Below are positions 11,377 through 64,000 of a stretch of DNA of 64,000 nt, one piece after another. The translations under genes and the position numbers were made by a program. Origin of the DNA: Candidatus Omnitrophota bacterium (lineage in GTDB: Bacteria > Omnitrophota > Gorgyraeia > Zapsychrales > JANLHA01); assembly GCA_029560465.1 (NCBI GenBank), contig JAKQKX010000082.1:4947-68946 (forward strand), written 5' to 3'. The notes under the pieces are model-generated. The model was not told the origin of the DNA. It saw nothing but the letters and a program-made list of their open reading frames with translations, and did not search any database. How positions within the stretch are numbered: the stretch's first letter is position 1; every line of letters starts with the position of its first letter.

Positions 11377-11451
11377 ATTTATCTCTTTTTATAGTCAGAA
11401 ATAATATATTGCACTTCTGACAGAAAGTAAAGCTGTTTTTAAGCTCCTGCG

Positions 11452-11554: not shown

Positions 11555-11563
11555 GACTGATTA

Positions 11564-12355: not shown

Positions 12356-12364
12356 AAACCCTCT

Positions 12365-15584: not shown

Positions 15585-15617
15585 TGTTTCAATAAATTAA
15601 ATTGGTATAATGAATAT

Positions 15618-36413: not shown

Positions 36414-36884
36414 TTATCTCTTAGCACATATTTTACATAGACCATAAAACTGAATTAGGTGATTAGTTATTTTAAATTCATATTTTTGACAAAGACCTTT
36501 TTCCGTTTCATTAAGCAATTTTACCTCTTCATCAATAAAATCCGTGTAGTCAATAACACGTTTACAACTAGTGCATATCAAATGATGGTGGTGCTGTGCT
36601 CCTTTAGGCCCTTCAGCCAATTCATAACGTGCTCTTTTGTCTCCGAAATCAAACTTGAAAATAAGACCTAAATTAGCCAATACATCTAATGTCCGATAAA
36701 TAGTTGTTAATCCGATGTTGGGGTATTTCGGATGCAGCTTCATGTAAATATCTTCAGCACTCAAATGGCCTTCGGATTTAGATAAAATATCAAGAATCGC
36801 CTCTCGTCCGGAAGTCAGTCGGTATCCACAACCCCTAAATTTTATATTCCACCATCCATGTCTGCGGCAGTTATTTTTTACCAT
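36414..36884 (-). CDS. Fur-family metalloregulator
   Basis: An HTH is followed by HHHHLIC..C and CxxC metal sites. Confidence 0.7.
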   Translation of the reverse strand: MVKNNCRRHGWWNIKFRGCGYRLTSGREAILDILSKSEGHLSAEDIYMKLHPKYPNIGLTTIYRTLDVLANLGLIFKFDFGDKRARYELAEGPKGAQHHHHLICTSCKRVIDYTDFIDEEVKLLNETEKGLCQKYEFKITNHLIQFYGLCKICAKR

Positions 36885-37278: not shown

Positions 37279-38736
37279 TCAATCTCCCGTGTGGTCAAGC
37301 CTTAAGATTCTCCACTCAATCCAATCCAGCGGCACCCGGCCTCTATATGTGCGAACACTCGTCAGAATACGTTCAGGGTTCCCCAGCGTTTCCAAGGGTA
37401 TCCTTATAGTTATTTCACGTGATTTTCGGTCAACCTCAATGATCTCGGCCTTTAGCGATTTCCCCTGGTCATACACCCGGTAGGATTCAGTTTTTAACAG
37501 CACGTGCAACTTCGGCATATTGGAAAAAGGAGAATCTGCTCGATAGCCGAAAACGTACAAGGAAGCCGTTATCTTACTGTCAATAGGCCTCGATAGGCGC
37601 AAGGTAAAAACGAGAGTTTTATTTTCAAGAGAGAGGAATTCTTCTTCTATTCCAACAAAATCCACCCGTTCTTCTTCAATAAGTTCTTCGGGGAGTTCAT
37701 TAAGGTAATCTTGGGCATGCTGAACCAGGCTATTTTTTATCCCTCTTTCCTTTAAGAGTATCTGGGGAAAATCGCCGTATAATTCATTGCGGCGCAGAAA
37801 AGAAAGAAGATATTTCGAATTAGATATATATTGGGAACGATGTGCCATGATCGCGTTCCTATTATTCTCGATCTCTTGCGTTGTCAAATCAACGACGCTC
37901 CAGCGAATCTCTTTATTGAGAGCAGCAGGCGGCATAAGTGCGGCTTGCGGCTTATAGCCCTTTAGTTTGGGCCAATTTTTAAAATGGATCAGGTAAGGAT
38001 ATAAGGTTGGTTTAATTTCATCCTCAAGTTCCCATAGAGCAATCTGAGTAAAAAGATACAAAGCCCTGTGGTCCGGGTTATGATCGGCAGGATGGGACAA
38101 GAACACCTTGGTCGGGTTGAATTCACGCAGAATATTCTTCAGGTCTTTGACTATTTCATCGCCTTTATAAGGCGCTCCTGGCCTAAAGGCATTTGAGTAA
38201 GGGACCGCGTTGACCCGGGAGAGCATACTTTTAGCCGCTGGCCGGTCATCCCCCCAATGTCTGCGCCAGAGCGTCAGTGTCCGGAAGTCCGGATACCCCA
38301 AAAAAATCATTTGTTGCGGTGTCAGCCCCAAAAATTTCCCCGCATGAAGAGCTTCCTCGCGACGAGTCTCTCCCATGATTCGGACTGCTTTAGGTTTGAT
38401 GACAGGGTGTTTCCGGTAAACTAAAAAAGACCATTGGTTGTTATCTCCATAAGTCAGGAAAACCACCTTGAGAGGCAATTTCATGCTCAAGGATTTTTGA
38501 ATGATACCACCGCAACCCAAGACTTCATCATCGGGATGAGGAGCTAAGATTATGATGCGGTCATCCGGGGTTAATGAGATCTCCGGTGAAGTTAACTCCT
38601 GTTTGTTTTCTTGCGCGGTCGCGGCAAACGGCAAAAGGAAATTTAGAGAAAGGATAGGGAGGAATATCCCTGTCAGTAATATCCACCGATAATTAAAGTT
38701 TTTTCCCAAAGACATACGAAGTGACCTCGCCGGCAA
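37279..38736 (-). CDS. PIG-L/LmbE-family deacetylase with signal peptide and C-terminal extension
   Basis: ILAPHPDDEVLGCGG is the LmbE motif. Confidence 0.65.
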   Translation of the reverse strand: MPARSLRMSLGKNFNYRWILLTGIFLPILSLNFLLPFAATAQENKQELTSPEISLTPDDRIIILAPHPDDEVLGCGGIIQKSLSMKLPLKVVFLTYGDNNQWSFLVYRKHPVIKPKAVRIMGETRREEALHAGKFLGLTPQQMIFLGYPDFRTLTLWRRHWGDDRPAAKSMLSRVNAVPYSNAFRPGAPYKGDEIVKDLKNILREFNPTKVFLSHPADHNPDHRALYLFTQIALWELEDEIKPTLYPYLIHFKNWPKLKGYKPQAALMPPAALNKEIRWSVVDLTTQEIENNRNAIMAHRSQYISNSKYLLSFLRRNELYGDFPQILLKERGIKNSLVQHAQDYLNELPEELIEEERVDFVGIEEEFLSLENKTLVFTLRLSRPIDSKITASLYVFGYRADSPFSNMPKLHVLLKTESYRVYDQGKSLKAEIIEVDRKSREITIRIPLETLGNPERILTSVRTYRGRVPLDWIEWRILRLDHTGD

Positions 38737-39334
38737 TAACAGATTTTAAATAAGATCGTTTTCGGGCGTATAAGATATCGAATCCCATTTTCAGAAAGAA
38801 ATTTTTTGCTTTTTCTGAGAACGTGCTGAGCTGGACACCTTTTATCTGCTGCTGTTTCAAAAAGTTGATGTAAACTTCTATCAGCCGTCCGCCGATATCC
38901 TGTCCGCGGCAGCTTTTATCTATGTTGATGTGTAGCGTTGCCGGGAATTCCTTAGAATAATCGGGGACCAAAAATTCGCCCTTGAAGAAACCCAAAACAC
39001 ACCGGAAGAAAAAATTTAAATTTGTTTTATTTAAAAAGGCCTTCCTGTAAAACACCTTGACCAGCAAGGATGGAAGGATCCTTCTTTTGATGATGCGTTT
39101 CATGCGCGGGATATGAATTGAACCGATTAAATACCCGACAACTTTGGAGCCGTCCGTGGCCACAAAGCATGAATGCGGTTCAAAATCCGTGAAATATAAA
39201 GACAAAAAATCAGCTAAGAGCTCATCGTCTTTGAAAATCAGCCCGCGATCTGACTCCAGGAAGGCCGTCTCACAGCACAGCCGCCGGACGTCCGCCCTAT
39301 CCTGGATAGAAAATTTTCGAATATTATACGTCAT
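38693..39334 (-). CDS. GNAT-family N-acetyltransferase
   Basis: The central region shows an acetyl-CoA-binding pattern (Q/RxxGxG/A-like: CRGQDIGGRLIE). Confidence 0.55.
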   Translation of the reverse strand: MTYNIRKFSIQDRADVRRLCCETAFLESDRGLIFKDDELLADFLSLYFTDFEPHSCFVATDGSKVVGYLIGSIHIPRMKRIIKRRILPSLLVKVFYRKAFLNKTNLNFFFRCVLGFFKGEFLVPDYSKEFPATLHINIDKSCRGQDIGGRLIEVYINFLKQQQIKGVQLSTFSEKAKNFFLKMGFDILYARKRSYLKSVIAGEVTSYVFGKKL

Positions 39335-49950: not shown

Positions 49951-51453
49951 TTATCTTTTCCGGCCCAGGATGGAGCCTAACACCCCGCGGACAATTTGAC
50001 GGCCGAGAGAACTTCCAATGGAGCGCATGGTGCTTTTGGCGAAAGCGGTCCCAAGGGTATCCCTGGGGCGGCCAGGGCTTCGACACTGGGCCGGTTTCTG
50101 GCCGCGGGGTTGCGGCAGTCGGTACTTTTGCTGCCGCGGGGCGGGGAGCTGTGGCGACTGAGCGGCTTTTTGTGCCGTCCGTTTCTTTATCACTTCAAAC
50201 GCTGATTCCCGATCAACAGTTTTTTCATAGTTGCCGAAATGAATCGAGTTCTTAATAATTTCCTGCCGTTCATCGGGCATGATAGTGCCCAGGCGGCCCT
50301 GGGGCGGGCACACGAAAGCTCGCTCAACAACCGCCGGAGTCCCGTTTTCTTCCAAGAAAGAGATGAGGGCTTCTCCTACTCCCAGTTCAGTGATCACTTT
50401 TTCAATGATAAGTTGAGGATTAGCGCGAAACGTCTGTGCCATCATTTTAACCGCTTTTTGTTCCTGAGGCGTAAAGGCCCGTAAGGCATGCTGCACGCGG
50501 TTGCCTAATTGGGCCAAAACTTTATCCGGAATATCTTTCGGGTTCTGAGTGACAAAATAAACGCCGACTCCTTTAGAACGGATCAGCCTCACGACTTGTT
50601 CGATCTTATCCATTAAAACCGGCGGGGCTTCCTCAAAAAGGAGATGCGCTTCATCAAAAAAGAAAACCATTTTAGGCTTATCCAAATCTCCCACTTCCGG
50701 CAGGCATTCAAAGAGTTCCGCCAGAAGCCAAAGCAGAAAAGTGACATAGACTTTGGGCCGGTTAATCAGTTGATCCGCCGTTAGAATATTAATGACGCCT
50801 CTGCCATCCGAATGCGTTTGGATGAGGTCAAAAATATCCAGCATCGGTTCGCCGAAAAATTGATCTCCGGCCTGGGTCTCCAATTCCAACACCCCGCGCT
50901 GGATGGCGCCGATGGACGCTTTAGAAATATTCCCATATTCCGTGGTGAATGCCGAAGCGTTATCACCCACATACTGAACAATGGCGCGTAAATCTTTCAG
51001 GTCTAAAAGCAACAACCCGTTGTCATCGGCAATCTTAAAAATTAAAGTCAAGACTCCGGTCTGCACTTCATTGAGATTAAAAAGCCGGCCGATAAGAAAC
51101 GGCCCCATATCGGAAACCGTCGCCCGTACCGGATGGCCGTTTTTCCCGAAAACATCCCAAAAAGCCACAGGATATTCCCGGAAAGAATGCTCGGAAAGAT
51201 TGATGAGTTTAACCCGGTCCAGAATTTTTTGCTTCTCGCTTCCCTTCTGGCTGATTCCTGATAAGTCCCCTTTTACATCAGAGAGAAACACGGGAATGCC
51301 ATTTTCGCTTAGGCTTTCGGCGATTCTTTGTAAGGTAACGGTCTTGCCTGTCCCCGTAGCCCCGGCAATCAAACCATGGCGGTTCGCCATGTGCGGAAGC
51401 AAATAAAATTCCGCATTCTGCAAATTTTTAGCAATCAGCATCGGTTTTTTCAT
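49951..51453 (-). CDS. HerA-like / DUF853 (YjgR-type) P-loop ATPase
   Basis: Walker A is GATGTGKT. The Walker B region is [10 protein letters not shown]. The C-terminal region is a basic tail. Confidence 0.65.
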
Positions 51454-51477
51454 TTCCGAGGACCCTTCTTCATGTTT

Positions 51478-52125
51478 TTATTTCGGCATGTTCTTGATAA
51501 AGGCATCAGCCTCGGCAATGGAGGTATTCATCCTCTCGATCAACTGCTCAATCTGGGATTGAATGCTTATCGCCTCCCCTTTCAAAGAACCAATCGCTGC
51601 CGCATTCAGGTTGTGCTTGAGATACAGCACATGGTCTTTGAGCTGCGTAAGCACGGGCTTCATGGACTCCTCTGAGGCACGCACAGCCTTTAATAATTGC
51701 GAATAACGGGATTTGGTTTCCGTGAGATTGCGTTTACTGTCGGCGGCAAAAGTCGGGTTACTGTATTGTTTAATCTCTTTTTCCCACTCGCTGAACATGG
51801 ATCCTGCTATGTTCTCCATGTTTTGAATACGGTTATGCACGACATCGGATTGGGACGCGGCGTCATCGTAGGCGGCTTTAAATTTGTTATACATATCTTC
51901 CAACCTGTCTCCTTGAAAACCGTATAACTCCTTCAGTTGAGTCATCGCATCCTTGAATTCTTGCTGCGCTTTTTGTTCGTCCTTACGCAGGGAAGTAACA
52001 GCTTTTGTTAGAAGCTGGCGTTTCTCATAACCAAACACTTTCTCCATTGTCGTGTTATAGACCGTTTGACACCCTGACGACAGTATCCCTAAAAGAAGAA
52101 AAAGCCACAGCATTTTTTGTCTCAT
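51478..52125 (-). CDS. DUF2959-like lipoprotein
   Basis: A signal peptide with a GC lipobox is followed by a helical region. Confidence 0.4.
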   Translation of the reverse strand: MRQKMLWLFLLLGILSSGCQTVYNTTMEKVFGYEKRQLLTKAVTSLRKDEQKAQQEFKDAMTQLKELYGFQGDRLEDMYNKFKAAYDDAASQSDVVHNRIQNMENIAGSMFSEWEKEIKQYSNPTFAADSKRNLTETKSRYSQLLKAVRASEESMKPVLTQLKDHVLYLKHNLNAAAIGSLKGEAISIQSQIEQLIERMNTSIAEADAFIKNMPK

Positions 52126-52419
52126 TTTTAAAAAAGCCTTTCTATGGTATGTCTGAATTTTGTATTAAATGGCATCAGTCATGATTGATTGTCCATCCGG
52201 CGTCTACTGTGCAGGAACACTTATCAATTATCGCTATTTGCGAGTGATTTTTCCATAATTATTTATATTAACAATAAATATCCGCTTTTTGCTGACTCTG
52301 CATCGTCGGGACCAATCCTTCGGCCACTGGCAAATTGCCATATAGTGCTTTTCATTTATTTTAATTATTGTATATTAATAATAAACACTTTTAACGTTGA
52401 TAAATGAGGGCAAATCATC

Positions 52420-53259
52420 ATGAGTAAGCAATGTCCGTTATGCCACGCGGAAAACATAAAAGAATCTTTTGAAAAAAATTTAATTTTCTATTACCGTTGC
52501 CCATCATGCCGTTTTTTGTTTTCCGGCCAGGATCAAAATCCGAATTTGGAGAATACGGCCATCGAACACTATGAACCTGCCTATGTCCGTTATCTGGAAG
52601 ATTCTCCCGAAGACGAGATTAATTTCAGCAAGACACTGGCATGGATTGAACAATTTAAGCCTTTAAATGGCCTGCGCGTGCTTGACGTCGGCACAGGCAC
52701 GGGAAAGTTTGTGCGTTATCTTAGGCGGAACTCGGTTGACGCTTTTGGACTCGAGCCTTCTGTGGCTTTATTTAACCGGTATCTTGCCCGGGAGCCGTTC
52801 TTTTTTCTGACTGACCTTCAGGGATTGCCTTCGGCAACTTCCCCGGAGCTTAAATATGACGCGGTCATTATCTCCGATGTGATCGAGCATGTCCGGGACC
52901 CGCACCCCTTCTTTTCCGGCCTGGACCGCGTTTTAAAGCCAGGAGCGGTCGTGTACATCTGCACGCCGAATGCGGGCAGTTCCCTGGCGCGTCTCTGCGG
53001 GAAAAATTGGCATTATATCAACAAATATCATTTTTCATTTTTTTCCCGCGAAACATTACAGGGCATCACGGCGCAATATGGGTTAAAAGAATTAGGTTTC
53101 ACGCATTGCGCACGTTTTAGGTCCATCGGGTATATCTTTCAGTATTTCGCTGACTTCGTGGCCGGCGACAGCAAATTCCGTATCCCCGCTTCGTGGTACC
53201 AGCGTGGCCTCCCCCTGAATCTGCACGATTTAATGCAGGTGATCTACCAACACGCTTAA
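52420..53259 (+). CDS. Class I SAM-dependent methyltransferase with N-terminal zinc ribbon
   Basis: CPLCHA...CPSCRF gives two CxxC pairs, and LDVGTGTGKF is motif I. Confidence 0.7.
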   Translation: MSKQCPLCHAENIKESFEKNLIFYYRCPSCRFLFSGQDQNPNLENTAIEHYEPAYVRYLEDSPEDEINFSKTLAWIEQFKPLNGLRVLDVGTGTGKFVRYLRRNSVDAFGLEPSVALFNRYLAREPFFFLTDLQGLPSATSPELKYDAVIISDVIEHVRDPHPFFSGLDRVLKPGAVVYICTPNAGSSLARLCGKNWHYINKYHFSFFSRETLQGITAQYGLKELGFTHCARFRSIGYIFQYFADFVAGDSKFRIPASWYQRGLPLNLHDLMQVIYQHA

Positions 53260-55148
53260 AAATTTTGTCCCCGTCCCATCCGTTTCATTCTCTGGTGCCA
53301 GGCGATGAGGATGAGCAGGTTCCATATTTGCTTGGCGTTGTTCGTCGTCCCGGCGAAATGTTCGTCGCACATTTGCAGGGCCGCCTGGTGATTCAGGCCG
53401 GCCTCGCGGATATTTTCGGCGGTCAGAATATCACGGATTAGGCCTTTAAAATCATTTTTGATCCAGAGCGCCAAAGGGACAAAAAACGGGCGTTTCTTGC
53501 CCCGGATGATGCGTTGAGGAAGATAGGGGCGCATCCCTTGCCTCAGGATGAATTTCGGTTTTAATTTATAGGGCCAGGGTATACTGTTGACGCACGCGAT
53601 AAAATCATCATCCAGATACGGCATTTTAAATTGCAAGCGCGTGCCTTGCCCCACGGCGTTTAATTTCATAAGCCAACGCTCGCTTAAAATTTTAATATAA
53701 GCCGTTAAAACCTGGTTGACGAATGTGCGGGCATGGGCGTGCTGCTGCGATTCCAGCACTTCTTGATAGACCTCCGCGCCGTCTAAGCACAGACGCGCGC
53801 GCATGTCCTCCGGGTATAAGGGATTTTGATATGGAGGCGGGAATGGGCCCCACCAGGCTGCGTCACGCAGGGCGGGTGGATACCCGACGCCGCCGAGAAA
53901 CTGCTTGAAGCGGGCATCAAACGCGCAGTAGCGATAGGATACCGGCAGAAAACGTATTGCCGCCTCGAAATATTTTCTAAACAATTCCGGAACGCGCGCG
54001 TAGATCTCGGTGATCCGGTGGGCAAGGAATGACGGGTACCCCATGAAAAGCTCGTCCGGGCCGTCCCCCAGAAAGACATCATCCACGAGATTCTCGGCTA
54101 CCGGTGACAGGACCCCCCCGCAAATAATATCGTCATCGGAAAACGGGTCATCCACCTTTTCGATCCAATTTTTCAGAAACGCAAGGGCTTTCTGCGGGGT
54201 GAATAAGATTTCGTGGTGCTGGGTTTGAAAGAAGGACGCGACGAGCCCGGCTCGGGACGCCTCATTGAACGATTTCTCGTCAAATACAGCGGTAAATGTC
54301 TGCACGCGTGTCTCCGGACTGATGTGCTTGAGAACCGCCGCTAGGGAGCTTGAGTCAAGCCCGCCGCTTAAAAACAATCCAACCCGGGAACCGGCTGATA
54401 AGCGCCGTTTCGTGCTTTGACACAGGGACTGGAAGACGTTTTGGCCATGCCACGCCTCTTGCTTGCGGGGGGGGGCTTCCTGTTCTTGAAATTGAATATC
54501 CCAGTAGGCCCTCAAGCCCGTTATGTTTTGCTCGAAACAGAGGAAGGTCCCGGAAGCCAGGCGATGAACCCCTTCTAAAAGGGTATTCGGGCTAGGGACA
54601 AACCCGTAGGCAAAATATTTCGGCAAGACGGGCAGATGCAGCGGCGGCAGGAGTCCGGATATCTTAATGATGGTTTCCATGTCTTCGGAAAAAAATAAAC
54701 ACCCCTTATGTTGGGAATAATAAATTTTCCTAGGGTGGAGTTTCCCGTTGAGCAAGTAGAAAGTGCGCTGGTGGATGTCTCGCAGCGCCATGGAAAAATC
54801 CCCGTTTAACCGGGTGAAACAATGGTGATTGAATTTCTGAAACAGGCGCGTTATTAACCAAGCCGCGTCTTCAGCCGCGGGAACGCGATCTTCTTCCGGC
54901 AAAAGTATCAGGAGTTCTTTATGGTTGTAAAGGCTGCCGTTGAACAAAACAGAATATCCCGGGATTTCGGCCCCCTCCCCTTTTTTTCCTGCGGATGGTC
55001 GCGGGGCAAAACCCATAAACAGCCCATCCGTGGAGCTGTTGAGAAGACAGGGTTGGCCCGCAGGAACGGCGAGCCTTTTGAGACGATGTATGATGTCTGG
55101 AGAGAGTGGCCGCTCCCAGGAAACGGCTCCGTAAAAGCCGGGCATCAT
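53256..55148 (-). CDS. Asparagine synthetase B-like amidotransferase (N-terminal nucleophile Cys absent)
   Basis: The PP-loop motif is SGGLDSSS. The protein starts MMPGFYG rather than MCG. Confidence 0.7.
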   Translation of the reverse strand: MMPGFYGAVSWERPLSPDIIHRLKRLAVPAGQPCLLNSSTDGLFMGFAPRPSAGKKGEGAEIPGYSVLFNGSLYNHKELLILLPEEDRVPAAEDAAWLITRLFQKFNHHCFTRLNGDFSMALRDIHQRTFYLLNGKLHPRKIYYSQHKGCLFFSEDMETIIKISGLLPPLHLPVLPKYFAYGFVPSPNTLLEGVHRLASGTFLCFEQNITGLRAYWDIQFQEQEAPPRKQEAWHGQNVFQSLCQSTKRRLSAGSRVGLFLSGGLDSSSLAAVLKHISPETRVQTFTAVFDEKSFNEASRAGLVASFFQTQHHEILFTPQKALAFLKNWIEKVDDPFSDDDIICGGVLSPVAENLVDDVFLGDGPDELFMGYPSFLAHRITEIYARVPELFRKYFEAAIRFLPVSYRYCAFDARFKQFLGGVGYPPALRDAAWWGPFPPPYQNPLYPEDMRARLCLDGAEVYQEVLESQQHAHARTFVNQVLTAYIKILSERWLMKLNAVGQGTRLQFKMPYLDDDFIACVNSIPWPYKLKPKFILRQGMRPYLPQRIIRGKKRPFFVPLALWIKNDFKGLIRDILTAENIREAGLNHQAALQMCDEHFAGTTNNAKQIWNLLILIAWHQRMKRMGRGQNF

Positions 55149-56599
55149 AGGCGCTCCTTATGGCTTGAAACGTGTTTCTCTTTTGAGAGCAGAAAGCAAA
55201 GCACTTCCATAATCATTTTGAAACTCCAGGTCCAGTTGAACAGATAAAAAAGCGAGTAATTTTTAATATGGGCCAAAAGAAACGCCGGCCTGAAAAAAAA
55301 TTGCCGGTAAAATCTTTTTTGAAAAATTTTTAATTCCTGATCCGTTAAGCGGCTGACATTGATAATCGGCCGGAGATAATGGTGTGGAGCGGCGGACGGC
55401 TTGAGGGACGTGCTATAACGTTGATAATCCTGCGAGCCGGGATAAAGCGTAAAGTTGTGCACTTTGATGAAATCCGGCTGCAACTGAAAAGCGAGCCTGA
55501 TGCTTTCATCCACGTCCGCACGGGTTTCCTGGGGATTCCCCACCATAAACAGCGCGCAGGTCGCGATGCCTTCGGCCCGTGCGTTCTGGAAGGTTTCCTT
55601 TGCTTGCGAATTCCAGTTGCTCTCGTGTCTGCTCTTATGCAACAGCCGGATAATCCCTTCTGCCCCGGATTCAACACCGAAAAGGATTAAAACGCATCCG
55701 GCTTGTTTCATATCATGAAGCAAACCAGGGGTCACCTCGTCAATCCGGGCATGACAGGCCCAGTGGATATTCAATCTTTTTTTACGAAGTTCGGCGCAGA
55801 TTGAACGCACGTGTTCAGGGTTTCCCGTGAAATCATCATCTTCGAATGAAATGATGTTGACCCCCAGGTTCTGCAAACTTTCAATTTCTTTGACGACGTG
55901 GCCGGCCGACCGCAACCGGAGGCTTTTCCCGAAACTTTTTCTGACTGAAGGCGAGCAGAAGGAACAGCCGTGCCGGCACCCCCGCGAAGTGGAGATGTAA
56001 CCCGGCAATATTTTTTTAGGAAGGCGTAAAGGGTACCTGTAGGGGTAGCTTCTTAAATCCTCTTTGGTCCAGCTCGGGAAAGGCAGCTTATCAAGTTCAG
56101 AAACCAGGCACACATCCTTGTTGACGGCGGGCGCGTCATGATACGGAAGAACGTTGCCCCCCCCGGTTTTATGAACATGGATCATGAGACGGCTCAATTC
56201 CAGTTCAAATTCCCCTCGCAAGATCACGTCAAAAACGTCTCTGGCGGCTGAATAAAACGGGTAGCGTTCACTAACATCAGACCCCACGGCGATGATCAGC
56301 AAGCCCTTATGCCGTTCCCGCATGTTTTGGCATAAAGTCAGCCCCCTTTCACTGGCTGGAGAAGCGATCTCAACGCATACTGTTTGGGCCGGCCATTGCG
56401 CGATAATATTTAAGATGCTTCGATCCGGAACGGAGGCGACAAGGCTGTCAATGATCCGGACTTTAAAATGGCCGCTTTGCTCCAGCAAGGCTTGCGCGTA
56501 TTTCAACGCCAGTGGCGGCGGGTAATGCAACGGATGGTCGATTTTTTTCCTTTGCGCGTACCCGGCGCGGATTAACAGGATATGATGGTTCATATTCAT
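55145..56599 (-). CDS. Cobalamin-binding (class B) radical SAM protein
   Basis: The N-terminal domain is B12-binding-like, followed by CRHGCSFC. Confidence 0.7.
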   Translation of the reverse strand: MNMNHHILLIRAGYAQRKKIDHPLHYPPPLALKYAQALLEQSGHFKVRIIDSLVASVPDRSILNIIAQWPAQTVCVEIASPASERGLTLCQNMRERHKGLLIIAVGSDVSERYPFYSAARDVFDVILRGEFELELSRLMIHVHKTGGGNVLPYHDAPAVNKDVCLVSELDKLPFPSWTKEDLRSYPYRYPLRLPKKILPGYISTSRGCRHGCSFCSPSVRKSFGKSLRLRSAGHVVKEIESLQNLGVNIISFEDDDFTGNPEHVRSICAELRKKRLNIHWACHARIDEVTPGLLHDMKQAGCVLILFGVESGAEGIIRLLHKSRHESNWNSQAKETFQNARAEGIATCALFMVGNPQETRADVDESIRLAFQLQPDFIKVHNFTLYPGSQDYQRYSTSLKPSAAPHHYLRPIINVSRLTDQELKIFQKRFYRQFFFRPAFLLAHIKNYSLFYLFNWTWSFKMIMEVLCFLLSKEKHVSSHKERL

Positions 56600-56605
56600 A
56601 AAGGC

Positions 56606-58261
56606 CTAGCTGGTCCTGGGTTTTCGTGGGGTCGCTGCGCACGTCCGCCGGCCCAAATGCCGTTCCCATTGACGGCCAACAACCGCCGCCGTCAGCGGGA
56701 TGAGCGGCAGGACATACCTGGGCAAGTTGTACGTGCTGATAAAAACAAGGGCAAAATAAACCAAGCTTATAAATGAGTAAAATTTTTCTGTCCGGTCGTT
56801 CCCAAAAACAAAAAAAGCCGGGAACAGAAGTGCGGTCCCTGCCAAAGTCCACCTGAGGAATTGCACGCTTTGATGGAAGGCCGGCGAAGGGCTGTACACG
56901 ACTTCCATCGGGTATATCCGTGATAATAACGAAAAATGATCAAACCGGTTAAAATGTTCGATTAATAGGCATTTGACATACACGCCGGAATCGCCGGTCA
57001 TCACGCCGGCCAGGAAAATGAAAGACAATAAGCTTAAGACGATGCCTCCATATTGGAAGAAAAGCCTTTGGGCCTCCCTTCTCCTTTCTTTTAAGAAAAT
57101 GAACAAGGCGCAGATACTCAATAGGATAAAGAGAATCCCATAGAACCTTGTCATGGTCGTGCTCGCAGCGAACAGCAGAAAAACAGCGTTATTTTTTCTT
57201 AAAAGGAAGATATAGGCCAAGAGGATTTGCCATATAAAAAAATGTTCTATAGAAATAAAAATAGCGGGTTCTTTTAAGACAACGAACAAATACGCGAGCA
57301 TGAGCCCCGCACAGGTTAAAAAGCGTATTTTGGATTGGGGCGGATGCCCTTGAGCCATCACGGCGCTGAACATCATGACAATGAAACTAAGGGACAGCAG
57401 TGACAATGCGGCAAGGTTTTCTCCAAAAAGCAGCGTGGCAAATACGGAAACGTAAGGATACAGCGGGGGGTCCGTAAAAACATACCCGAATTTGTTGGAG
57501 TATTCCAGGTCCCAATAGGGCAGGAGATGGGTCCTGAGGCTGTTGGCCAGGCCGAAAACTTCAAGGGCATCTGACTGCTGGCCAAGCGGGATCGCCAGGA
57601 TCATGTCTTTGTCGTATTGATATGCGACGGGCGCCCCATTGAGGATGACTGGGCGGAAGGTTAGCCCAAACAGGACAGCCACCAGGATCAAACCGCAATA
57701 CGGGGTGGCGTGTTTCAAGGAGAGGATCAATTTTTTGTTAGGATATTGTTTTTGACCGTGCCTTTTACGGGATAACGAGACCAGTTCAAACACGGTAGAA
57801 AGCATCAGGAGGCCCAAAAAGTTGATCCTGTCCAGGCCGGTGGCGGGCCGTATGATTTTATAAATCGTGGTCACGAGAATACAAATGAGAATGCTCGAGA
57901 GGAAGGAAACCCCCAGGAAGACAGGCAAGTCGTTTTGCAACCTTCTGAAATGCAGGGAGAAAATCCATCCCGGAATCACATAAAGCATCAGAAACCCGGC
58001 TCCGAATACCAGGAAACTGATTGTGGTCGCGGCCGCGTTACCCTTATGGGGGCTGAAAATATGGACCTCCTGAAATCCGCAATGATAAAACAGACTCAGC
58101 AGGTATGTCCCCAGGAGATATATTCCGATGGCCAAACCCGCAGCGCCTGTGACGCATCTGATATTTTGGATTTCAATCCGCAGATTGCGAATTTTTATCG
58201 GTATTGTTGATTTCATGGCATTAAAACACGGTTTTGTTTCATTATTAAATTTTTTGATCAC
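56606..58261 (-). CDS. Polytopic membrane protein, possibly GT-C-fold glycosyltransferase
   Basis: 551 aa with at least 12 TM helices. It is adjacent to a GT39-like gene. Confidence 0.4.
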   Translation of the reverse strand: MIKKFNNETKPCFNAMKSTIPIKIRNLRIEIQNIRCVTGAAGLAIGIYLLGTYLLSLFYHCGFQEVHIFSPHKGNAAATTISFLVFGAGFLMLYVIPGWIFSLHFRRLQNDLPVFLGVSFLSSILICILVTTIYKIIRPATGLDRINFLGLLMLSTVFELVSLSRKRHGQKQYPNKKLILSLKHATPYCGLILVAVLFGLTFRPVILNGAPVAYQYDKDMILAIPLGQQSDALEVFGLANSLRTHLLPYWDLEYSNKFGYVFTDPPLYPYVSVFATLLFGENLAALSLLSLSFIVMMFSAVMAQGHPPQSKIRFLTCAGLMLAYLFVVLKEPAIFISIEHFFIWQILLAYIFLLRKNNAVFLLFAASTTMTRFYGILFILLSICALFIFLKERRREAQRLFFQYGGIVLSLLSFIFLAGVMTGDSGVYVKCLLIEHFNRFDHFSLLSRIYPMEVVYSPSPAFHQSVQFLRWTLAGTALLFPAFFVFGNDRTEKFYSFISLVYFALVFISTYNLPRYVLPLIPLTAAVVGRQWERHLGRRTCAATPRKPRTS

Positions 58262-59591
58262 GACAGTGGCTTTCTTCCGGGAAGTGTTCCAGAAGATATC
58301 TCCGGACCTTTTGCGCCATCAGGATATCCCCATCTTGCCGGTATTGCTGCTCCGTCAGGCACAGCGCGCGCACTTTCAACCCCGGGTTCGGGACCCAGCC
58401 GTTCGCCGGAAACGATATAAAAGAAAAAGCGTTCAGGATAAAATAAAAAATCAGGAACGGCACCCCATAACGGGCCCGGGGAAAACGTTCCAAGAATTCT
58501 GCAAGCATCGCAGATCCCAGGATAAGCCCCGGCAGGACTAAAACAATGGCCCACCAGAAATTATCCAGGTGGAAATGATACCCCCCCCCTGTCCTGGGCC
58601 GCACAAGCGAAAAAAACAGGAAATTAGAATAAAAGATCCAGATTAATAAATTTAATAAATTATTTTTAGTATTACGGAACAAGAAATAGACGGCTCCCCC
58701 AAGGCAGATCAGGCCCAGGACCCAGTTGAAAAAAGGATATTCAATCGAGCAAATTTTGAATATGTAGTCACTGGCGAACTCAGGCAAATTAAAGACAAAT
58801 ATTTCTCCGAGGAAAAGGGCCGCGGGAACCAGGCTGATGGAAAAGAATTCGGCCCGGCTGCTCTTGACCGAATAGTCCACCCAAGCGTGTTGGACATTCC
58901 AGAGCACATATGGGGACACGCATAAGAAGATAAGAATATGCAAGATAAGAAAATCGTTCATGGAGAACCGTTTGGGGTTTGCGGGATCGATAAAAAGGTA
59001 ATACAGGATAATGGGCCAGAGCGTTATGATGTTTAATTTCACCAGGAGCCCCAGCCCCATGGAAAACCCGGCTCCCCAAAGGTAAAACTTCCCCCGGCTG
59101 ATACGCGCTTGCCCGGCGAAAAATAAGATGCAGACAATGAAAAATAACAATATCCCGTCCGGTTTTAGCAAACGGGAAAATCCTATGAAAAATTGGCTGA
59201 ACGCCGCGAAAAAAAGCGCCCACTGGGCTGTTGGGGTGTTCACGTGTTTTTTAACAAGCAGGTACAGGACCCCTAATGTTAAAGTCCCGAACAAGACCCC
59301 AGGGAAACGCATCGCGAGGGTATTCTCCCCTCCCGCCGATAAACTCCATTGGAGTAAGTACTGGACCAATGGGGGATTGTGAGTCAGCTCACTGCCGGCC
59401 GGCATTGATGTTGCCCCGCTGAAGGATGGCACACTTCTTAATATCTCTTCTTCATCCAGGACGCGCGGAACCGTTGTGGATCCATAAAGCCGCAGTAAAA
59501 ATCCTGAAGTGAGGCAGAGGATCAGAATCGTCCGTTCAGAGTTGTTTTTTATCCGTTTCATGGATGATAAAAATTTTTTTGTAAAATCCAT
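58245..59591 (-). CDS. GT39/ArnT-like (PMT family) membrane glycosyltransferase
   Basis: The N-terminal section looks like the PMT_2 family (RLYGSTTVP...RFPGVLFGTLTL). Confidence 0.55.
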   Translation of the reverse strand: MDFTKKFLSSMKRIKNNSERTILILCLTSGFLLRLYGSTTVPRVLDEEEILRSVPSFSGATSMPAGSELTHNPPLVQYLLQWSLSAGGENTLAMRFPGVLFGTLTLGVLYLLVKKHVNTPTAQWALFFAAFSQFFIGFSRLLKPDGILLFFIVCILFFAGQARISRGKFYLWGAGFSMGLGLLVKLNIITLWPIILYYLFIDPANPKRFSMNDFLILHILIFLCVSPYVLWNVQHAWVDYSVKSSRAEFFSISLVPAALFLGEIFVFNLPEFASDYIFKICSIEYPFFNWVLGLICLGGAVYFLFRNTKNNLLNLLIWIFYSNFLFFSLVRPRTGGGYHFHLDNFWWAIVLVLPGLILGSAMLAEFLERFPRARYGVPFLIFYFILNAFSFISFPANGWVPNPGLKVRALCLTEQQYRQDGDILMAQKVRRYLLEHFPEESHCRDQKI

Positions 59592-59616
59592 GTCTGGCTT
59601 CTGCCCCGTTATGGTT

Positions 59617-60621
59617 TTAACGCCCGCCGGCCCGTTTTAGCATATTCATGGCCCCAGAAAAATTAAAGGATGCCGCTAAGTTCATCTCCACGGTAGAGGC
59701 GCACCAGCAGTCACAGCACGGGCTCACCCTCATCTGGGTGACGGCTTTCTTGACTCCGACCTGGCGGATATCCGCGTTTTGGGACTGTTTCGATTTCGAA
59801 AGGAACTGGCGGCTGCAATTTGTCATTAACCCGTCCGGTTCGATGCGGAAATGCACTTTCCCGGCCGAACACGCAATGGCGGTCGGCTTGGGCCAGCGCG
59901 CGAGGTGGTCTAACCCGGCGAGTGAATTTAAAATATGCGGGTTGCCCTTTCTTTTCGCGGTTATGATTTTATGGATGGCCGCCTGATAATCTTCCGGTAT
60001 CGGGGCGAGCGGGTTTTCTTTCTTGCTTTCCAGGAGACAGAGAGAAACAGGTTGAAACGCGACTTTGACGTTATACTGCCGGGCGGTCTTAAGGATATCG
60101 TCAACGTGCCCGGTATTCATTCTTGTCAATACGGTATTGAACGCCGGCACACAACCCTCCCGTATCAGGGATTCTACGGCCTTCAGGACAAGGTCGTGCG
60201 TGCCGCGGCCGCGGATGGCGTCATGAATCGCTTGCGGGCCGTCAAAACTTAAAGTGATGCGGTCCGCTTTTTTGAGCACTGGTATCCGCGTTTGCGCGAT
60301 AAGCCCATTGGTGTTAATCGATACATAGATTTTTCTCCGTGCGGCATGGTCCAGGATCTCTCCCAAATCAGGGCGTAATAATGGCTCGCCGCCTGTTAAA
60401 GATATTACCGCCGTGCCCATGGTCGCCAGGTCATCCATGATGGCCATGATTTCCTGAAGGCGGAGTTCCTGCTCATGCGGGTATGACCAGTTTTCGCAAT
60501 ACTGACACCGGGCGTTGCATTGATATGTGATAGCCCAGCTGACGACGATCGGGATATTCTGCCTATAAATTTGGGCGCGCAGGAAATTTTTCGCTATGGA
60601 AATGATTGTGCTTTTATTCAT
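59617..60621 (-). CDS. Radical SAM protein with C-terminal SPASM/twitch-like Cys cluster
   Basis: CNARCQYC is followed by C-terminal cysteines (CSAG..C...CCDCWC). Confidence 0.65.
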   Translation of the reverse strand: MNKSTIISIAKNFLRAQIYRQNIPIVVSWAITYQCNARCQYCENWSYPHEQELRLQEIMAIMDDLATMGTAVISLTGGEPLLRPDLGEILDHAARRKIYVSINTNGLIAQTRIPVLKKADRITLSFDGPQAIHDAIRGRGTHDLVLKAVESLIREGCVPAFNTVLTRMNTGHVDDILKTARQYNVKVAFQPVSLCLLESKKENPLAPIPEDYQAAIHKIITAKRKGNPHILNSLAGLDHLARWPKPTAIACSAGKVHFRIEPDGLMTNCSRQFLSKSKQSQNADIRQVGVKKAVTQMRVSPCCDCWCASTVEMNLAASFNFSGAMNMLKRAGGR

Positions 60622-62128
60622 AACGGGGCGCCCCGGGTCGCAGCAGCTCTTTTCTTATTTTTATAAGTTCACGGTATATCCCAGGATTCAAAACATAAAA
60701 AACAAAATAACGGCGGGCATGATCCCAGAGGAAAGACGGCCGCAATAGGAATTTTTTATAAAACAAAAATTGGGCGGATTTAAACTCCTGGTCTTCCATA
60801 TGACTGGGGTTAATCCTGGGGACGCTGTAATGATATAATTCCGAAGAATGATTGTCTGGGAATTTTTCCCGGAACGTCGTGTAATACCGGGACCCTGGAA
60901 ACGGCGTGAAATACGCCACCTGAATAATGTCAGGATTGAGCCCCCGCACAAAATGAATGTCATTTTTCAAATCTTCATACGTCTCTCCGGGACAGCCGAC
61001 CATGAAGAGGCACACAGCGCCGATGCCCTGCGCCTGGGTTAGAGCCACCGCCTTTCGGGTTTTCTCCGGCCATGAATCAGGGGCTGAAGTTTTCCCGATG
61101 GCGTTCAGGATGTCCCTACTTACGGTTTCCACGCCATAACGCAATAACAGGCAACCGCTTTCCCGCATCAGGCGTAACAGCGGCTCGTCAACCTCATCAA
61201 CCCGCGCGTGCGCGATCCAGTGGATTTTTAACGCGCGGCGCAGAATCTCTTCACAGATGGACTGGACATGAGCCCGGGAATTGGTGAAATTGTCATCGTC
61301 AAAGCTGATCACGTTCGCGCCCATGTTTAAAAGGTGTTCGATCTCATCCGCCACGTTCGTGGCCGAGCGCAGGCGGATCTCGGCCCCATAGCTTTCCCGC
61401 ATGATTTGAGAACAAAAAATGCACCGGTGTGGGCATCCGCGGCTGCTTAAGAGGTGTCCCCAGACGATGTGTTGGGCCAGTTTTAGCGGATAGACAAAAT
61501 GGTAGCCCTGGAGTTCTTCCGGATTATACGGGGGGAACGGCAGGGCGTCCAGGTCGCGGACAATCCAGGGGTGACTCACGTTTGCGGGGTTTTCATAGAA
61601 GTGTTTCAGGTCTCCGGAGGAATGCCCCGCGGCAAATTTTTGGATAATATCCACGACCGCCTGCTCCGCTTCGCCGGCCAGGACAATATGGAATTGGGGG
61701 TATTTCGCCCTGAAGGCCTCTGCGTCGGCGCTTGGGGCCTGGCCGATGGCAATAAATATAATGGCCCCATCCCGTGCAGCGCAAAGGTCCCGGGAGAATG
61801 TCCCGGTCACGGTTTCATTGAGGGACGACACGTCAAAAATAACGGCGCGTGGGTTGCTCCGACTCCAGAGCTCCTGGATCCCGGCCAGGGTTATGTCGGA
61901 AATATGCTGGTCGACCAGGGTTACTGAAAACCGAGCCTCCTTTTTGAGGCTGGCTTCCACATATTTCAGGATGTACGGGGGCCGGTGCCCGATAGGATGA
62001 TTCGAATGCCTGTAAACGTCGGGAACGAGCCGCAACAACATAATCCCGCATGGAGGATCATATCTGGATGATGGCGTGGTTAAGTTCATGTTTTTGGGAT
62101 TAAGCAAAACGTTGGCATTCTTTTTCAA
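60614..62128 (-). CDS. Cobalamin-binding (class B) radical SAM protein
   Basis: The N-terminal domain is B12-binding-like, followed by SSRGCPHRCIFCSQ. Confidence 0.7.
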   Translation of the reverse strand: MKKNANVLLNPKNMNLTTPSSRYDPPCGIMLLRLVPDVYRHSNHPIGHRPPYILKYVEASLKKEARFSVTLVDQHISDITLAGIQELWSRSNPRAVIFDVSSLNETVTGTFSRDLCAARDGAIIFIAIGQAPSADAEAFRAKYPQFHIVLAGEAEQAVVDIIQKFAAGHSSGDLKHFYENPANVSHPWIVRDLDALPFPPYNPEELQGYHFVYPLKLAQHIVWGHLLSSRGCPHRCIFCSQIMRESYGAEIRLRSATNVADEIEHLLNMGANVISFDDDNFTNSRAHVQSICEEILRRALKIHWIAHARVDEVDEPLLRLMRESGCLLLRYGVETVSRDILNAIGKTSAPDSWPEKTRKAVALTQAQGIGAVCLFMVGCPGETYEDLKNDIHFVRGLNPDIIQVAYFTPFPGSRYYTTFREKFPDNHSSELYHYSVPRINPSHMEDQEFKSAQFLFYKKFLLRPSFLWDHARRYFVFYVLNPGIYRELIKIRKELLRPGAPRYE

Positions 62129-63344
62129 AAATTTCCGCTATAAAATTTATTTCTGTTTCATTTAAATGATGATAAACCGGGAGAATCAGGATCATGTCCG
62201 CAATCCGTTCGGCTTGGGGACAGTGTTTCAGGGCATCCCTGAAAATCTTTAAACGGTTGCAGTTGTAAGTATCAAGGGTTTTCGTGCTGATCCCGTGCTG
62301 AAGTAATTTTTTTATTAAAACAGGCCGCCGGGGAACCAAGATCGGGTAATTCCAGTAGGTGTGTTCCCCTTCCGGCGCGGTCTGGGGGATCTGGACTCCC
62401 GGGATTTGGTGAAACCGGGCGTTGAAAATCCTGGCGTTCCAGAGTCTCCTCTGCTGGATCTGCTCGCTGACCGTAAATTTATGGATTCCCACCGCAGCCT
62501 GAAAATTTGTGTATTTATGGCGCGGGACAGCTTTCAGGGGGCGATCTTTTTCTTCGATGAAATAATCCATCAGGTCAAGGCCGGCCCAAAAACAGAGGAA
62601 CTGAACCGGGAAGACCAAGAGCCCATAAAAAAGGCCTGAGCTCATCACCAGCATGGCCGTGTTTTTAAGAAGATCGGCCATGGCGCTCGTCCAAGAGGGG
62701 CACCGCATTTCCTGTTCATAAATACGCGTCAGCCTGGCATAGAGTTCTTCGTCGTTCGTCAGGATCATCCCTCCGCCGAAGGTGGGGATGTCTTTTGTAG
62801 CCCCGAGGCTGAAACAGGACACGTCTCCCCATGTGCCGACGTACCGGGATTGATAGCGTGTCTCCCAGGCGTTGGCGCAATCTTCAATGACAAACAGGTT
62901 ATGCTTCCGGGCCAGGGCCAGGATCGCGTCCATGGGACAGGCGTTTCCAAACAGGTGAACGGCGACAATGGCTTTGGTTTTGGGGGTAATGTTGGGTTCG
63001 ATCAGGCGTTCATCCATGTGCAGGGTCTGGCTGTTAATATCAATAAAGACCGGCTTGATGCCCTTGCATTGTAATATTTTTGGAAAAGCCGGCATGTTAA
63101 AAGCCGGGAGAATCACTTCGTCCCCGCTTTTAATATCCAAAGCGTCCAGGATGAGCGCGAAAGCGGAGCGGCATGACCCGGTGGCCAAAGCGTGCTTTAT
63201 GCCATAGACTCCGGCAAAACGGGCTTCAAATTCTTTTATGTACGCTCCCGTCAGAAAACGTTTTGTCCCGGCTAAACAAATAGTACGCCAGAGGTCGTGA
63301 AGCGTGTTGCTGGATTTTTGGCGGGGGATCGGTTTAAATATCAT
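62100..63344 (-). CDS. DegT/DnrJ/EryC1/StrS-family PLP-dependent sugar aminotransferase
   Basis: SLGATKDIPTFGGGMILTN is the PLP-lysine region, and the overall DegT pattern is present. Confidence 0.7.
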   Translation of the reverse strand: MIFKPIPRQKSSNTLHDLWRTICLAGTKRFLTGAYIKEFEARFAGVYGIKHALATGSCRSAFALILDALDIKSGDEVILPAFNMPAFPKILQCKGIKPVFIDINSQTLHMDERLIEPNITPKTKAIVAVHLFGNACPMDAILALARKHNLFVIEDCANAWETRYQSRYVGTWGDVSCFSLGATKDIPTFGGGMILTNDEELYARLTRIYEQEMRCPSWTSAMADLLKNTAMLVMSSGLFYGLLVFPVQFLCFWAGLDLMDYFIEEKDRPLKAVPRHKYTNFQAAVGIHKFTVSEQIQQRRLWNARIFNARFHQIPGVQIPQTAPEGEHTYWNYPILVPRRPVLIKKLLQHGISTKTLDTYNCNRLKIFRDALKHCPQAERIADMILILPVYHHLNETEINFIAEIFEKECQRFA

Positions 63345-63364
63345 GTTTTATGGGCGGTAAGTTA

Positions 63365-64000
63365 TTATTTTTTATTAAGCGTATAATTCCCGCATTCCCG
63401 GCATTTCCGGACTTGTGTATCAGGGTTCTCATTAAAGGCTTCGAAGCCGTTTTCCGGCAGGGAGTAATCCTCCTGTTTCCATAACATATCAACGAGCGCA
63501 AGGACCTTACGTTTTAATTCCAGGAATGAACCGATTTTTAGTAAATGGTTCCATAAGAAACGGGGCCTCGCGTAATAAGAAATATAAGCCCAACGGGTCA
63601 GTTGATCGACCTCCTGGTTTGTCAGTTCGGTCCAAGGGCGGGGCAATTCCCTGTCTGTTTCTTTCCCAAGGATCCATTCCCGCCAATAGTCTTTTTGTTC
63701 TTTAGCCACCAGATCTTTCCAAAGCGGGGTCAAGGGCTTGGCCAGGCATTTGGAAAACTGCACGTAATCCAGGTCGAGTTTTTTAGCGAACGCGACCGTT
63801 TCCCTGACCGTTTCCCGGGTGTCTCCCGGCGCGCCAATCAAAAAGAAACCCAAAGTCCGGATTCCCAGAGAGGAACAGGCGGCAATAGTGTCCCGGACAT
63901 TTTGCAGGGAGACCTCTTTATGAACCCTGTCTAAGATATCCTGGCACCCGGACTCCAAGCCGAAATAAATCCTCCGGCAACCCGCCTGCTTCATGGCAGA
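63365..64000 (-). CDS. Cobalamin-binding radical SAM protein, C-terminal part only (the start lies beyond the window end)
   Basis: The ORF is open to the window edge. The C-terminal region is like those of the other class B rSAM paralogs (…YFGLESG…). Confidence 0.55.
   Translation of the reverse strand, partial: SAMKQAGCRRIYFGLESGCQDILDRVHKEVSLQNVRDTIAACSSLGIRTLGFFLIGAPGDTRETVRETVAFAKKLDLDYVQFSKCLAKPLTPLWKDLVAKEQKDYWREWILGKETDRELPRPWTELTNQEVDQLTRWAYISYYARPRFLWNHLLKIGSFLELKRKVLALVDMLWKQEDYSLPENGFEAFNENPDTQVRKCRECGNYTLNKK

Follow-up and report, generated by a model that had tools for sequence, protein, structure and literature searches.

A 64,000-nucleotide stretch of a Candidatus Omnitrophota genome (assembly GCA_029560465.1, contig JAKQKX010000082.1, positions 4,947 to 68,946 of the forward strand), here called the window and numbered from its first letter, ends in an operon that encodes four radical S-adenosylmethionine (SAM) enzymes, a DegT aminotransferase, an AsnB homologue and two membrane proteins assigned to the GT-C class of glycosyltransferases, one of them by predicted fold. 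It is well supported that this system is conserved, rare and undescribed. As to its function, we hold it somewhat more probable than an even chance that this is an accessory envelope-glycoconjugate operon that works with a lipid carrier as the Arn, Gtr and CsbB-YfhO systems do and inserts radical SAM chemistry between the loading of a sugar onto the carrier and its transfer. The process would be of a known kind, lipid-carrier GT-C glycosylation with an amino sugar, and the new parts are the block of predicted tailoring enzymes that use radical SAM, pyridoxal phosphate (PLP) and ATP, the GT-C family and the hairpin-bearing DegT protein.

Gene order, extent and distribution

The operon lies on the reverse strand at positions 53256 to 64000, where the listing of open reading frames (ORFs) of the window gives eight tightly packed, co-oriented frames, joined by overlaps of 4, 17, 8 and 29 nucleotides (nt) and by gaps of 6, 25 and 20 nt (Table 1). 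A first-pass annotation, made from the letters of the window, had described three B12-type radical SAM enzymes, a DegT aminotransferase and an AsnB homologue without its cysteine in one packed and co-oriented operon, and the ORFs and domains confirm this. Its count of at least nine genes continuing past the window end has to be lowered to eight genes in the window, while the continuation itself is real. Extension of the contig, which it had proposed as the way to the operon start, was possible through a metagenome contig of the Joint Genome Institute (JGI 3300010355, 101,857 bp, here L001) from a sample series that is apparently of anaerobic digesters, which differs from window positions 52100 to 64000 (11.9 kb) by two mismatches only. 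Paralogue A of the class-B radical SAM enzymes is complete there at 501 amino acids (L001 8475-9980), with its start at window-equivalent position ~64870. Upstream of it come a 175-nt gap and a gene for a 389-amino-acid HEAT-repeat protein with an N-terminal hydrophobic segment, and beyond that the genes are divergent. On the strength of this gap, the HEAT gene and the divergent genes, paralogue A is probably the first gene, and the operon most likely consists of eight genes and ends ~0.9 kb past the window, or of nine genes ending at ~2.2 kb if the HEAT gene is counted.

The 175-nt gap contains an extended -10-like element, TATGATACAAT (L001 8401-8411, window-equivalent ~64934-64944, outside the window), which is found again at positions 3269-3279 of the related locus L008 and which precedes the start of the first class-B gene by 64-85 nt (64 nt in L001). 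It is the best-kept stretch of an intergenic region that has otherwise diverged between L001 and this 74-79% identical relative, and it is likely to be the operon promoter. Scans for promoters and terminators returned counts not above shuffled expectation, with only this element standing out, and an Rfam scan of the 21-kb L001 locus found no riboswitch or RNA family that reached the gathering score. The GC content of the operon (0.47-0.53) is not distinct from that of the neighbouring 38-52 kb.

Clustering of the ORFs across ten loci that carry the new GT-C family revealed a kept order of paralogue A, DegT, paralogue B, the 334-amino-acid radical SAM enzyme, PMT_2, the new GT-C protein, paralogue C and AsnB. 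The full order is present in three other loci from metagenome-assembled genomes (MAGs), L008 (63% identity), L012 (59%) and L007 (46%; the same DNA is also present as L013), the last two with insertions of a fourth class-B enzyme, a flippase-like gene and a second DegT gene. The order of L007 then continues with a fifth class-B enzyme, a glycosyltransferase of family 2 (GT2) and a gene of the GT9 heptosyltransferase family. About ten loci share a looser version of the gene set, together with ArnC-like GT2, flippase-like and nucleotide-sugar genes. In the clustered loci, linkage to the new GT-C family is tightest for the 334-residue radical SAM enzyme (nine of the ten loci), and the other partners are class-B radical SAM enzymes (eight loci, 25 copies), GT2 and PMT_2 (six each), DegT (five), YfhO, flippase-like and AsnB genes (four each) and HEAT (three). 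The locus L015 (on chromosome OY759724.1) has, at its positions 9818-13274, a minimal cassette of overlapping genes for the GT-C protein, a radical SAM/SPASM enzyme and a GT2. The cassette is located between CorA and housekeeping genes, with the large cluster L007 ~80 kb away in that genome, an arrangement that suggests this module to be the basic functional unit. Loci of distant homologues of the 334-residue enzyme have flippase-like, PMT_2, GT2, class-B radical SAM and DegT genes together with large unannotated membrane proteins, and one of them also has a UDP-galactopyranose mutase. Other related loci carry an NTP_transferase-GT2 fusion, epimerase/dehydratases and GalT-like genes, and GT9 heptosyltransferase-family genes of the lipopolysaccharide (LPS) type are found in L007 and L009.

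The first-pass annotation had considered the combination undescribed, while leaving room for a known antibiotic or O-antigen cluster or for genes that are not syntenic elsewhere. Neither of these turned out to be the case, and the synteny in other MAGs is described above. Proteins identical to those of the operon are deposited under generic names at NCBI with Candidatus Omnitrophota MAG labels, and the DegT protein is encoded by several metagenome contigs. None of the operon and flanking genes scores above any curated NCBIfam cut-off, sequence searches against the PDB gave distant relatives only, and full-text searches of the literature found no description of such a system; the papers found in this way that mention Omnitrophota with radical SAM enzymes or hopanoids are unrelated to it.

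Table 1. Genes of the operon, in their 5' to 3' order, and the convergent neighbour (window positions)
Feature	Position	Strand	Family evidence
Class-B radical SAM paralogue A, C-terminal 211 codons	63365-64000	-	Pfam Radical_SAM
DegT aminotransferase, 414 amino acids	62100-63344	-	Pfam DegT 1.7e-76
Class-B radical SAM paralogue B, 504 amino acids	60614-62128	-	Radical_SAM 1.7e-16; B12-binding 4e-5, sub-threshold
Small radical SAM enzyme, 334 amino acids	59617-60621	-	Pfam Radical_SAM 2e-25
PMT_2 GT-C transferase, 448 amino acids	58245-59591	-	PMT_2 1.4e-21; PMT 2e-10
Polytopic membrane protein, 551 amino acids	56606-58261	-	No Pfam or NCBIfam family; GT-C by predicted fold
Class-B radical SAM paralogue C, 484 amino acids	55145-56599	-	Radical_SAM 7e-20; B12-binding 6.7e-5, sub-threshold
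AsnB homologue, 630 amino acids, last operon gene	53256-55148	-	Asn_synthase 1.7e-58; GATase_7
Zinc-ribbon class-I SAM methyltransferase	52420-53259	+	Methyltransf_23 4.8e-26

The transferases and proposed tailoring enzymes

The expectation of two GT-C transferases held for the PMT_2 protein by sequence, and for the 551-residue protein, which has no sequence support, by fold. The PMT_2 protein scores 77.8 bits against PF13231 (gathering score 26.1), which places it with the ArnT-like transferases of the GT39/GT83 type, and has the sequence DEEE after its first hydrophobic segment; it has no sequence-level match in the PDB. The model of the 551-residue protein shows a GT-C fold, with ArnT as the best match, in Foldseek as well, and AglB, ALG9, PglB, STT3, PMTs, AftA/B/D and PimE among the others. 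Its invariant acids D231, E234, D251, E253 and D264 are located in a loop with short helices, within the motif IPLG.QSD.LE.FGLA...LPYWDLEY...TDPPLYPY. The profile of this protein gave no significant match to the PMT_2 protein or to another unannotated membrane protein of L007. Judged by its modelled fold, it is the founding member of a small GT-C-fold family outside Pfam and NCBIfam. The family is represented by 10 matches among 5.8 billion proteins (word index), by 117 profile matches, 32 of them at E<=1e-30, among 1.84 billion cluster representatives, and by 8 loci among 185,579 species genomes. The labels on these eight loci read Omnitrophota or 'uncultured Planctomycetales', and in one case 'Nanoarchaeum'. 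The latter locus (L014, PNOQ01000030.1, 'Nanoarchaeum sp.') has a cluster of the bacterial type, with two DegT proteins, PMT_2, a class-B radical SAM enzyme, the new GT-C protein and YfhO, and its label is probably a binning error.

The DegT protein is a member of its family (PF01041, 258 bits) with a PLP lysine, Lys184, that is invariant in 39 sequences, and it scores 140.7 bits against the ArnB model NF008658 (cut-off 631). Its closest solved relative is perosamine synthetase (E 4e-41), aligned over amino acids 23-211 only, that is, the large domain, and glutamine:scyllo-inosose and 2-deoxy-scyllo-inosose aminotransferases are also among the solved relatives. Between the large and small domains it carries a hydrophobic insertion of ~45 amino acids (amino acids ~212-275), which all of the 8 homologues from the loci (two subfamilies) share with ~20 database homologues and which generic DegT proteins do not have. 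The AlphaFold2 model (mean confidence score, pLDDT, 94.9) places helices at 218-234, 237-253 and 258-263 in this insertion, and the most hydrophobic 19-mer of the protein is 238-256 (Kyte-Doolittle mean 1.83). We infer that the insertion is a monotopic membrane hairpin.

The AsnB homologue begins with MMPGFYG and thus has no Cys2, the start being fixed by the 4-nt overlap with the upstream gene. Proline or threonine replaces the cysteine in the homologues of L007, L008 and L012. The synthetase domain (Asn_synthase, 199 bits) is conserved with its PP-loop LSGGLDSSS (SGGLDS), so that this half of a glutamine-dependent AsnB enzyme is present and the N-terminal nucleophile is not. Since the nucleophilic cysteine is gone, the enzyme cannot hydrolyse glutamine in the canonical manner and its glutaminase domain is dead. 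It should therefore, as predicted from its residues, form amides at the expense of ATP, with ammonia or a different amine as substrate. Its top NCBIfam match is TIGR03108 (223 bits, cut-off 816.9) and its closest solved relative the hydroxyamidotransferase 7ylz (E 5e-12); beta-lactam synthetase and the lasso cyclases are analogous cases of AsnB homologues without the cysteine. The two differences between the window (54572 and 54575) and L001 (18773 and 18770) create a stop at codon 192 of the asnB-like gene in the JGI version, which splits it into ORFs of 191 and 419 amino acids; either the last gene is inactivated in a variant of the population, or the assembly is in error.

The motif CxxxCxxC is present in all three class-B paralogues (CPHRCIFC in paralogue B). 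For paralogue A, PF02310 and PF04055 are on record for the L001 protein, while the B12-binding Pfam scores of paralogues B and C (23-24 bits) are below the gathering score of 32.1, and their class-B architecture rests on alignments to the HpnJ and BchE models that are full length and start at amino acids 28-47. By sequence, the three can thus be assigned to class B, with the cysteine core after an N-terminal Rossmann domain of the B12-binding type. The 504 amino acids of paralogue B require a TTG start, which is uncertain, other gene callers giving 475 or 448 amino acids. The families that they match best, HpnJ, BchE, PhpK and ApyD, are matched with scores far below the respective cut-offs: HpnJ, the best or second-best NCBIfam match of all three, gives 158, 124 and 132 bits for A, B and C (cut-off 577.6), and BchE gives 130 bits for B. 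The PDB search covered paralogue C alone among the three, and its closest solved relative is AprD4 (6fd2, E 5e-15, 58 bits), which is named a diol-dehydratase in NCBIfam. HpnJ and BchE have been proposed to perform ring contraction and oxidative cyclisation. With such matches, the multiple C-methylations predicted by the first-pass annotation become one option only, and the candidate chemistries are C-methylation, deoxygenation and ring rearrangement. The three paralogues are mutually 27-35% identical, and each groups in a neighbour-joining tree with its positional counterparts in L001, L007, L008 and L012; separate orthogroups at fixed positions point to three old, separately conserved functions.

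The 334-residue enzyme was initially called a SPASM radical SAM protein that would predict an amidation step. Besides C35, C39 and C42, it has invariant cysteines at 251, 269 and 305, and C302 and C307 are found in 14 of 16 sequences. These are five C-terminal cysteines as opposed to the seven of the SPASM motif, and Pfam SPASM (PF13186) does not match. From its cysteine set we regard it as a twitch-like or partial SPASM protein and not as a full SPASM enzyme, and no prediction of amidation follows from it. Comparison with the PDB relates it to SkfB, PqqE, CteB and BlsE, a sugar decarboxylase, it scores 69 bits against HpnH (cut-off 225), and only 19 database proteins match it at E<=1e-20.

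Proposed route and alternative explanations

Further upstream in L001 are an LPG_synthase_TM (flippase-like) gene, a gene for a 238-amino-acid GT2 (L001 573-1289, 7 kb upstream of the operon), WbqC and a YfhO-family GT-C gene, with the LPG_synthase_TM and YfhO genes adjoining the GT2. In the PDB sequence search, the three best solved relatives of the GT2 are all ArnC sequences, with GtrB and dolichol-phosphate mannose synthase next in rank, and its score against the ArnC model NF007986 is 52.3 bits (cut-off 529). By these relatives, it is of the polyprenyl-phosphate glycosyltransferase type. The window also contains an OEP/TolC gene, a sign that the envelope is diderm.

The route that we propose is deduced from gene content in all its steps, substrates, step order and acceptor. 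On the cytoplasmic side of the membrane, the ArnC-like GT2, which in the relatives lies inside the cluster, would charge polyprenyl phosphate with a hexose. A hydroxyl of the sugar would then be oxidised to a ketone by the twitch-type 334-residue enzyme, a reaction for which BtrN is a radical SAM precedent; the operon has no NAD-dependent dehydratase or dehydrogenase. DegT would turn the ketone into an amine, held at the membrane by its hydrophobic helical hairpin, and the three class-B paralogues would each perform one further radical step (C-methylation, deoxygenation or ring rearrangement). The AsnB homologue may adenylate a carboxylate and form an amide with ammonia or the new sugar amine. 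Finally, the flippase-like LPG_synthase_TM protein would move the finished lipid-linked sugar across the membrane, where the PMT_2 transferase and the new GT-C-fold protein would transfer it to one or more periplasmic acceptors, be it LPS/lipid A, a glycan or a surface protein. Since L007 and L009 carry GT9 genes and the window an OEP gene, an acceptor of the LPS type is plausible.

The first-pass annotation had read ArnB/ArnT logic into the operon, that is, an amino sugar that is synthesised and then passed on to an acceptor of the envelope, with a polyprenyl-phosphate donor. The core of this is supported by the ArnC-like GT2, the flippase-like and YfhO genes, the fold of the 551-residue protein, the nucleotide-sugar genes in relatives and the DegT insertion, and what it said of sugar, acceptor and reactions stays at the level of gene content. 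The Arn system itself (PmrHFIJKLM), which adds 4-amino-4-deoxy-L-arabinose (L-Ara4N) to lipid A, is a different one: no ArnA or ArnD domain is present in any locus examined, the ArnB, ArnC and ArnT equivalog scores of the operon and GT2 proteins are far below the cut-offs, the flippase candidate is of the LPG_synthase_TM family instead of ArnE/F, and Arn has no counterpart for the four radical SAM enzymes and the amide synthetase. The membrane-type insertion of DegT suggests that transamination here takes place after lipid loading, as opposed to the nucleotide-sugar stage in Arn.

The second relationship is with the three-component systems of GT2, flippase and GT-C, such as GtrABC, CsbB-GtcA-YfhO, Francisella FlmF2-NaxD-FlmK, Bordetella LgmABC and mycobacterial PpgS-Rv3779. 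The likeness lies in the module of GT2, small membrane protein and GT-C, including GT-C proteins of the YfhO family, that recurs in the loci. The sugar is known to be tailored on the lipid before flipping by deacetylation (NaxD, LgmC), deformylation (ArnD) or epimerisation (DprE1/E2), whereas the tailoring here would consist of radical SAM chemistry, transamination and amide ligation, which to our knowledge have not been described for lipid-linked sugars. The most specific version of our proposal is that these three kinds of reaction act directly on the polyprenyl-phosphate-linked sugar and that the new GT-C family installs the multiply modified sugar on the Omnitrophota envelope; we put this forward tentatively and would sooner bet against it than for it.

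Several points weigh against an accessory glycoconjugate operon of this type. The GT2 and flippase-like genes are outside the operon in this genome, with divergent genes between, and the operon has no nucleotide-sugar synthesis gene. GPI-transamidase subunits PIG-U/GAB1 are also among the fold matches of the 551-residue protein, and going by its model the new GT-C protein could be a non-catalytic subunit. The DegT insertion could be a lid or an oligomer interface instead of a membrane anchor. The class-B matches (HpnJ, BchE, PhpK, AprD4) are far below cut-off and point to different chemistries. AprD4 has a B12-like domain but is not known to bind cobalamin, and cobalamin binding and methyl transfer by the paralogues, for which no sequence motif is diagnostic, are predicted only. 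BtrN, lastly, did not come up when the 334-residue enzyme was compared with solved structures by phmmer.

The alternative that survives best, and that we still consider unlikely, is the tailoring of the head group of a free glycolipid in the manner of hopanoid HpnH/I/J/K/L. The GT2 would glycosylate a lipid, HpnJ-like enzymes would contract or rearrange the (amino)sugar to a cyclitol-type head, and on the same improbable account the product would stay a membrane lipid with no transfer to a macromolecule. The combination of a GT2, an LPG_synthase_TM-type protein and radical SAM enzymes does resemble hpnI/J/L, and HpnJ is the top or second NCBIfam match of all three paralogues (124-158 bits). 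The 334-residue enzyme weakly matches HpnH (69 bits), the GT2 weakly matches HpnB, and LPG_synthase_TM is, we presume, the family of HpnL. Low-level conservation of squalene-hopene cyclase in Omnitrophota has been reported (PMC12324291). However, the Hpn scores are 3-8 fold below the cut-offs, and no squalene-hopene cyclase, HpnG or HpnK was found in any of 21 loci, so that equivalog HpnH/HpnJ with the cyclase, by which the Hpn pathway is recognised, is absent from the fetched loci. One to three GT-C enzymes per locus are defining components here, and the presence of GT9 heptosyltransferase and nucleotide-sugar genes speaks for the building of a glycan. GT-C, DegT and AsnB are, as far as we know, foreign to the Hpn pathway, which uses the class-III aminotransferase HpnO, and we know of no need in it for GT-C transferases or DegT.

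We give little credence to a diffusible metabolite of the aminoglycoside or aminocyclitol kind, made by oxidation and transamination of the BtrN/BtrS type, deoxygenation of the AprD4 type and C-methylation of the GenK type. Its attraction is the butirosin pathway, where the twitch radical SAM dehydrogenase BtrN works with BtrS, a DegT-family aminotransferase. Here, too, a small twitch-type radical SAM enzyme with one set of auxiliary-cluster-type cysteines adjoins a DegT gene, which would mean an anaerobic route from hydroxyl to ketone to amine without NAD. The inosose aminotransferases among the DegT relatives, AprD4 as the closest solved relative of paralogue C, and the action of class-B-type radical SAM enzymes such as GenK and GenD1 (C-methylation) and AprD4 (deoxygenation) on amino sugars add to the likeness. 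The similarity is low (BtrN is not detectably similar by phmmer, and AprD4 gives the 58 bits above), three paralogues share one operon, and the setting is a membrane and envelope one with GT-C proteins, in contrast to a soluble antibiotic. Moreover, there is no 2-deoxy-scyllo-inosose synthase or inositol-phosphate synthase, no soluble GT-B glycosyltransferase in the operon and no operon-specific resistance or export gene. The transferases are polytopic GT-C proteins, which use lipid-linked donors on the outer face of the membrane, DegT has its membrane-type insertion, and the related loci hold LPS-type GT9 and polyprenyl-phosphate GT2 genes.

More improbable still is the maturation of a ribosomally synthesised and post-translationally modified peptide (RiPP) by class-B C-methyltransferases, a SPASM-type maturase and an AsnB-like cyclase of the lasso type, or of a protein that is tailored and then glycosylated by the PMT-like enzyme, for which NCBIfam matches to ApyD, rSAM_ocin_1, mycofactocin maturase and lasso cyclase, the 334-residue relatives SkfB, PqqE and CteB, and the missing cysteine typical of AsnB homologues among lasso and lactam cyclases could be cited, since the intra-operon gaps of 6-25 nt leave no space for a precursor gene, the upstream gaps of 175 and 290 nt hold chance-like small ORFs only, the RiPP-family scores are far below the cut-offs, and DegT, two GT-C, GT2, flippase-like and sugar-nucleotide genes are foreign to RiPP pathways. 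With no precursor gene and no plausible conserved small ORF found in these gaps, we rejected it.

Neighbouring genes and significance

The convergent gene at the 3' end of the operon, which the first-pass annotation had called a zinc-ribbon methyltransferase, is real, with an N-terminal CxxC...CxxC (Cys4) ribbon, and overlaps the stop codon of the asnB-like gene by 4 nt. The convergent arrangement is kept in L008 and absent from L007, and the gene possibly provides an accessory step or further decoration. A HerA/VirB4-like ATPase (500 amino acids) and a DUF2959 protein (49951-52125, -) separate it from an ABC-2 transporter; this pair looks like a lineage insertion, as the ABC-2 genes directly follow the methyltransferase in L008. 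On the other side, outside the window (L001 3932-6840, -), a 471-amino-acid radical SAM protein with weak class-B matches and a CapK/PaaK-like adenylate-forming ligase of 498 amino acids form a divergent pair. The pair is conserved in L008 and might provide the amino sugar with an acyl group, or add a further decoration.

Far from the operon, a fourth B12-binding radical SAM protein of 488 amino acids (22290-23756, -) has a B12-binding match above threshold (1.7e-10) and is no orthologue of paralogues A-C in the tree. A second, small lipid- or glycan-looking group at 12365-17442 comprises a methyltransferase, a fatty-acid hydroxylase, DUF547, a GT2, DUF3108 (on the opposite strand) and a radical SAM protein of 353 amino acids. 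At 37279-39334 (-), a PIG-L/LmbE-type de-N-acetylase (485 amino acids) overlaps a GNAT acetyltransferase, which could be another pair handling a sugar amine, unlinked to the operon. Two P-loop proteins of the MinD/ParA/NUBPL type with embedded 4Fe-4S ferredoxin motifs (30501-31352 and 33056-33928, -) flank a pyridine-nucleotide disulphide oxidoreductase, and a Fur regulator lies at 36414-36884. The other end of the window, at 759-7593, is a defence and toxin-antitoxin island with RadC, an NTP_transf_8 nucleotidyltransferase beside an AbiEi-type antitoxin, an AbiJ-NTD3-TIR protein and a separate AbiEii nucleotidyltransferase toxin.

Glycosylation by way of a lipid carrier, with its GT2, flippase and GT-C, is well understood. 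The tailoring known to occur on lipid-linked sugars consists of hydrolytic or redox steps, and tailoring of such a sugar that depends on radical SAM, PLP and ATP would be new enzymology. If the reactions do take place directly on the carrier, the product may be a multiply modified sugar, for example one that is C-branched, aminated and amidated, and the operon would represent a new branch of lipid-carrier glycosylation and a new substrate class for radical SAM enzymes of the cobalamin type. The new GT-C family, the hairpin-bearing DegT subfamily and the three orthologous class-B groups are testable objects for this proposal. Omnitrophota are ultra-small, largely uncultured bacteria, whose attachment to host or prey could be affected by the sugar, should it prove to be a surface determinant.

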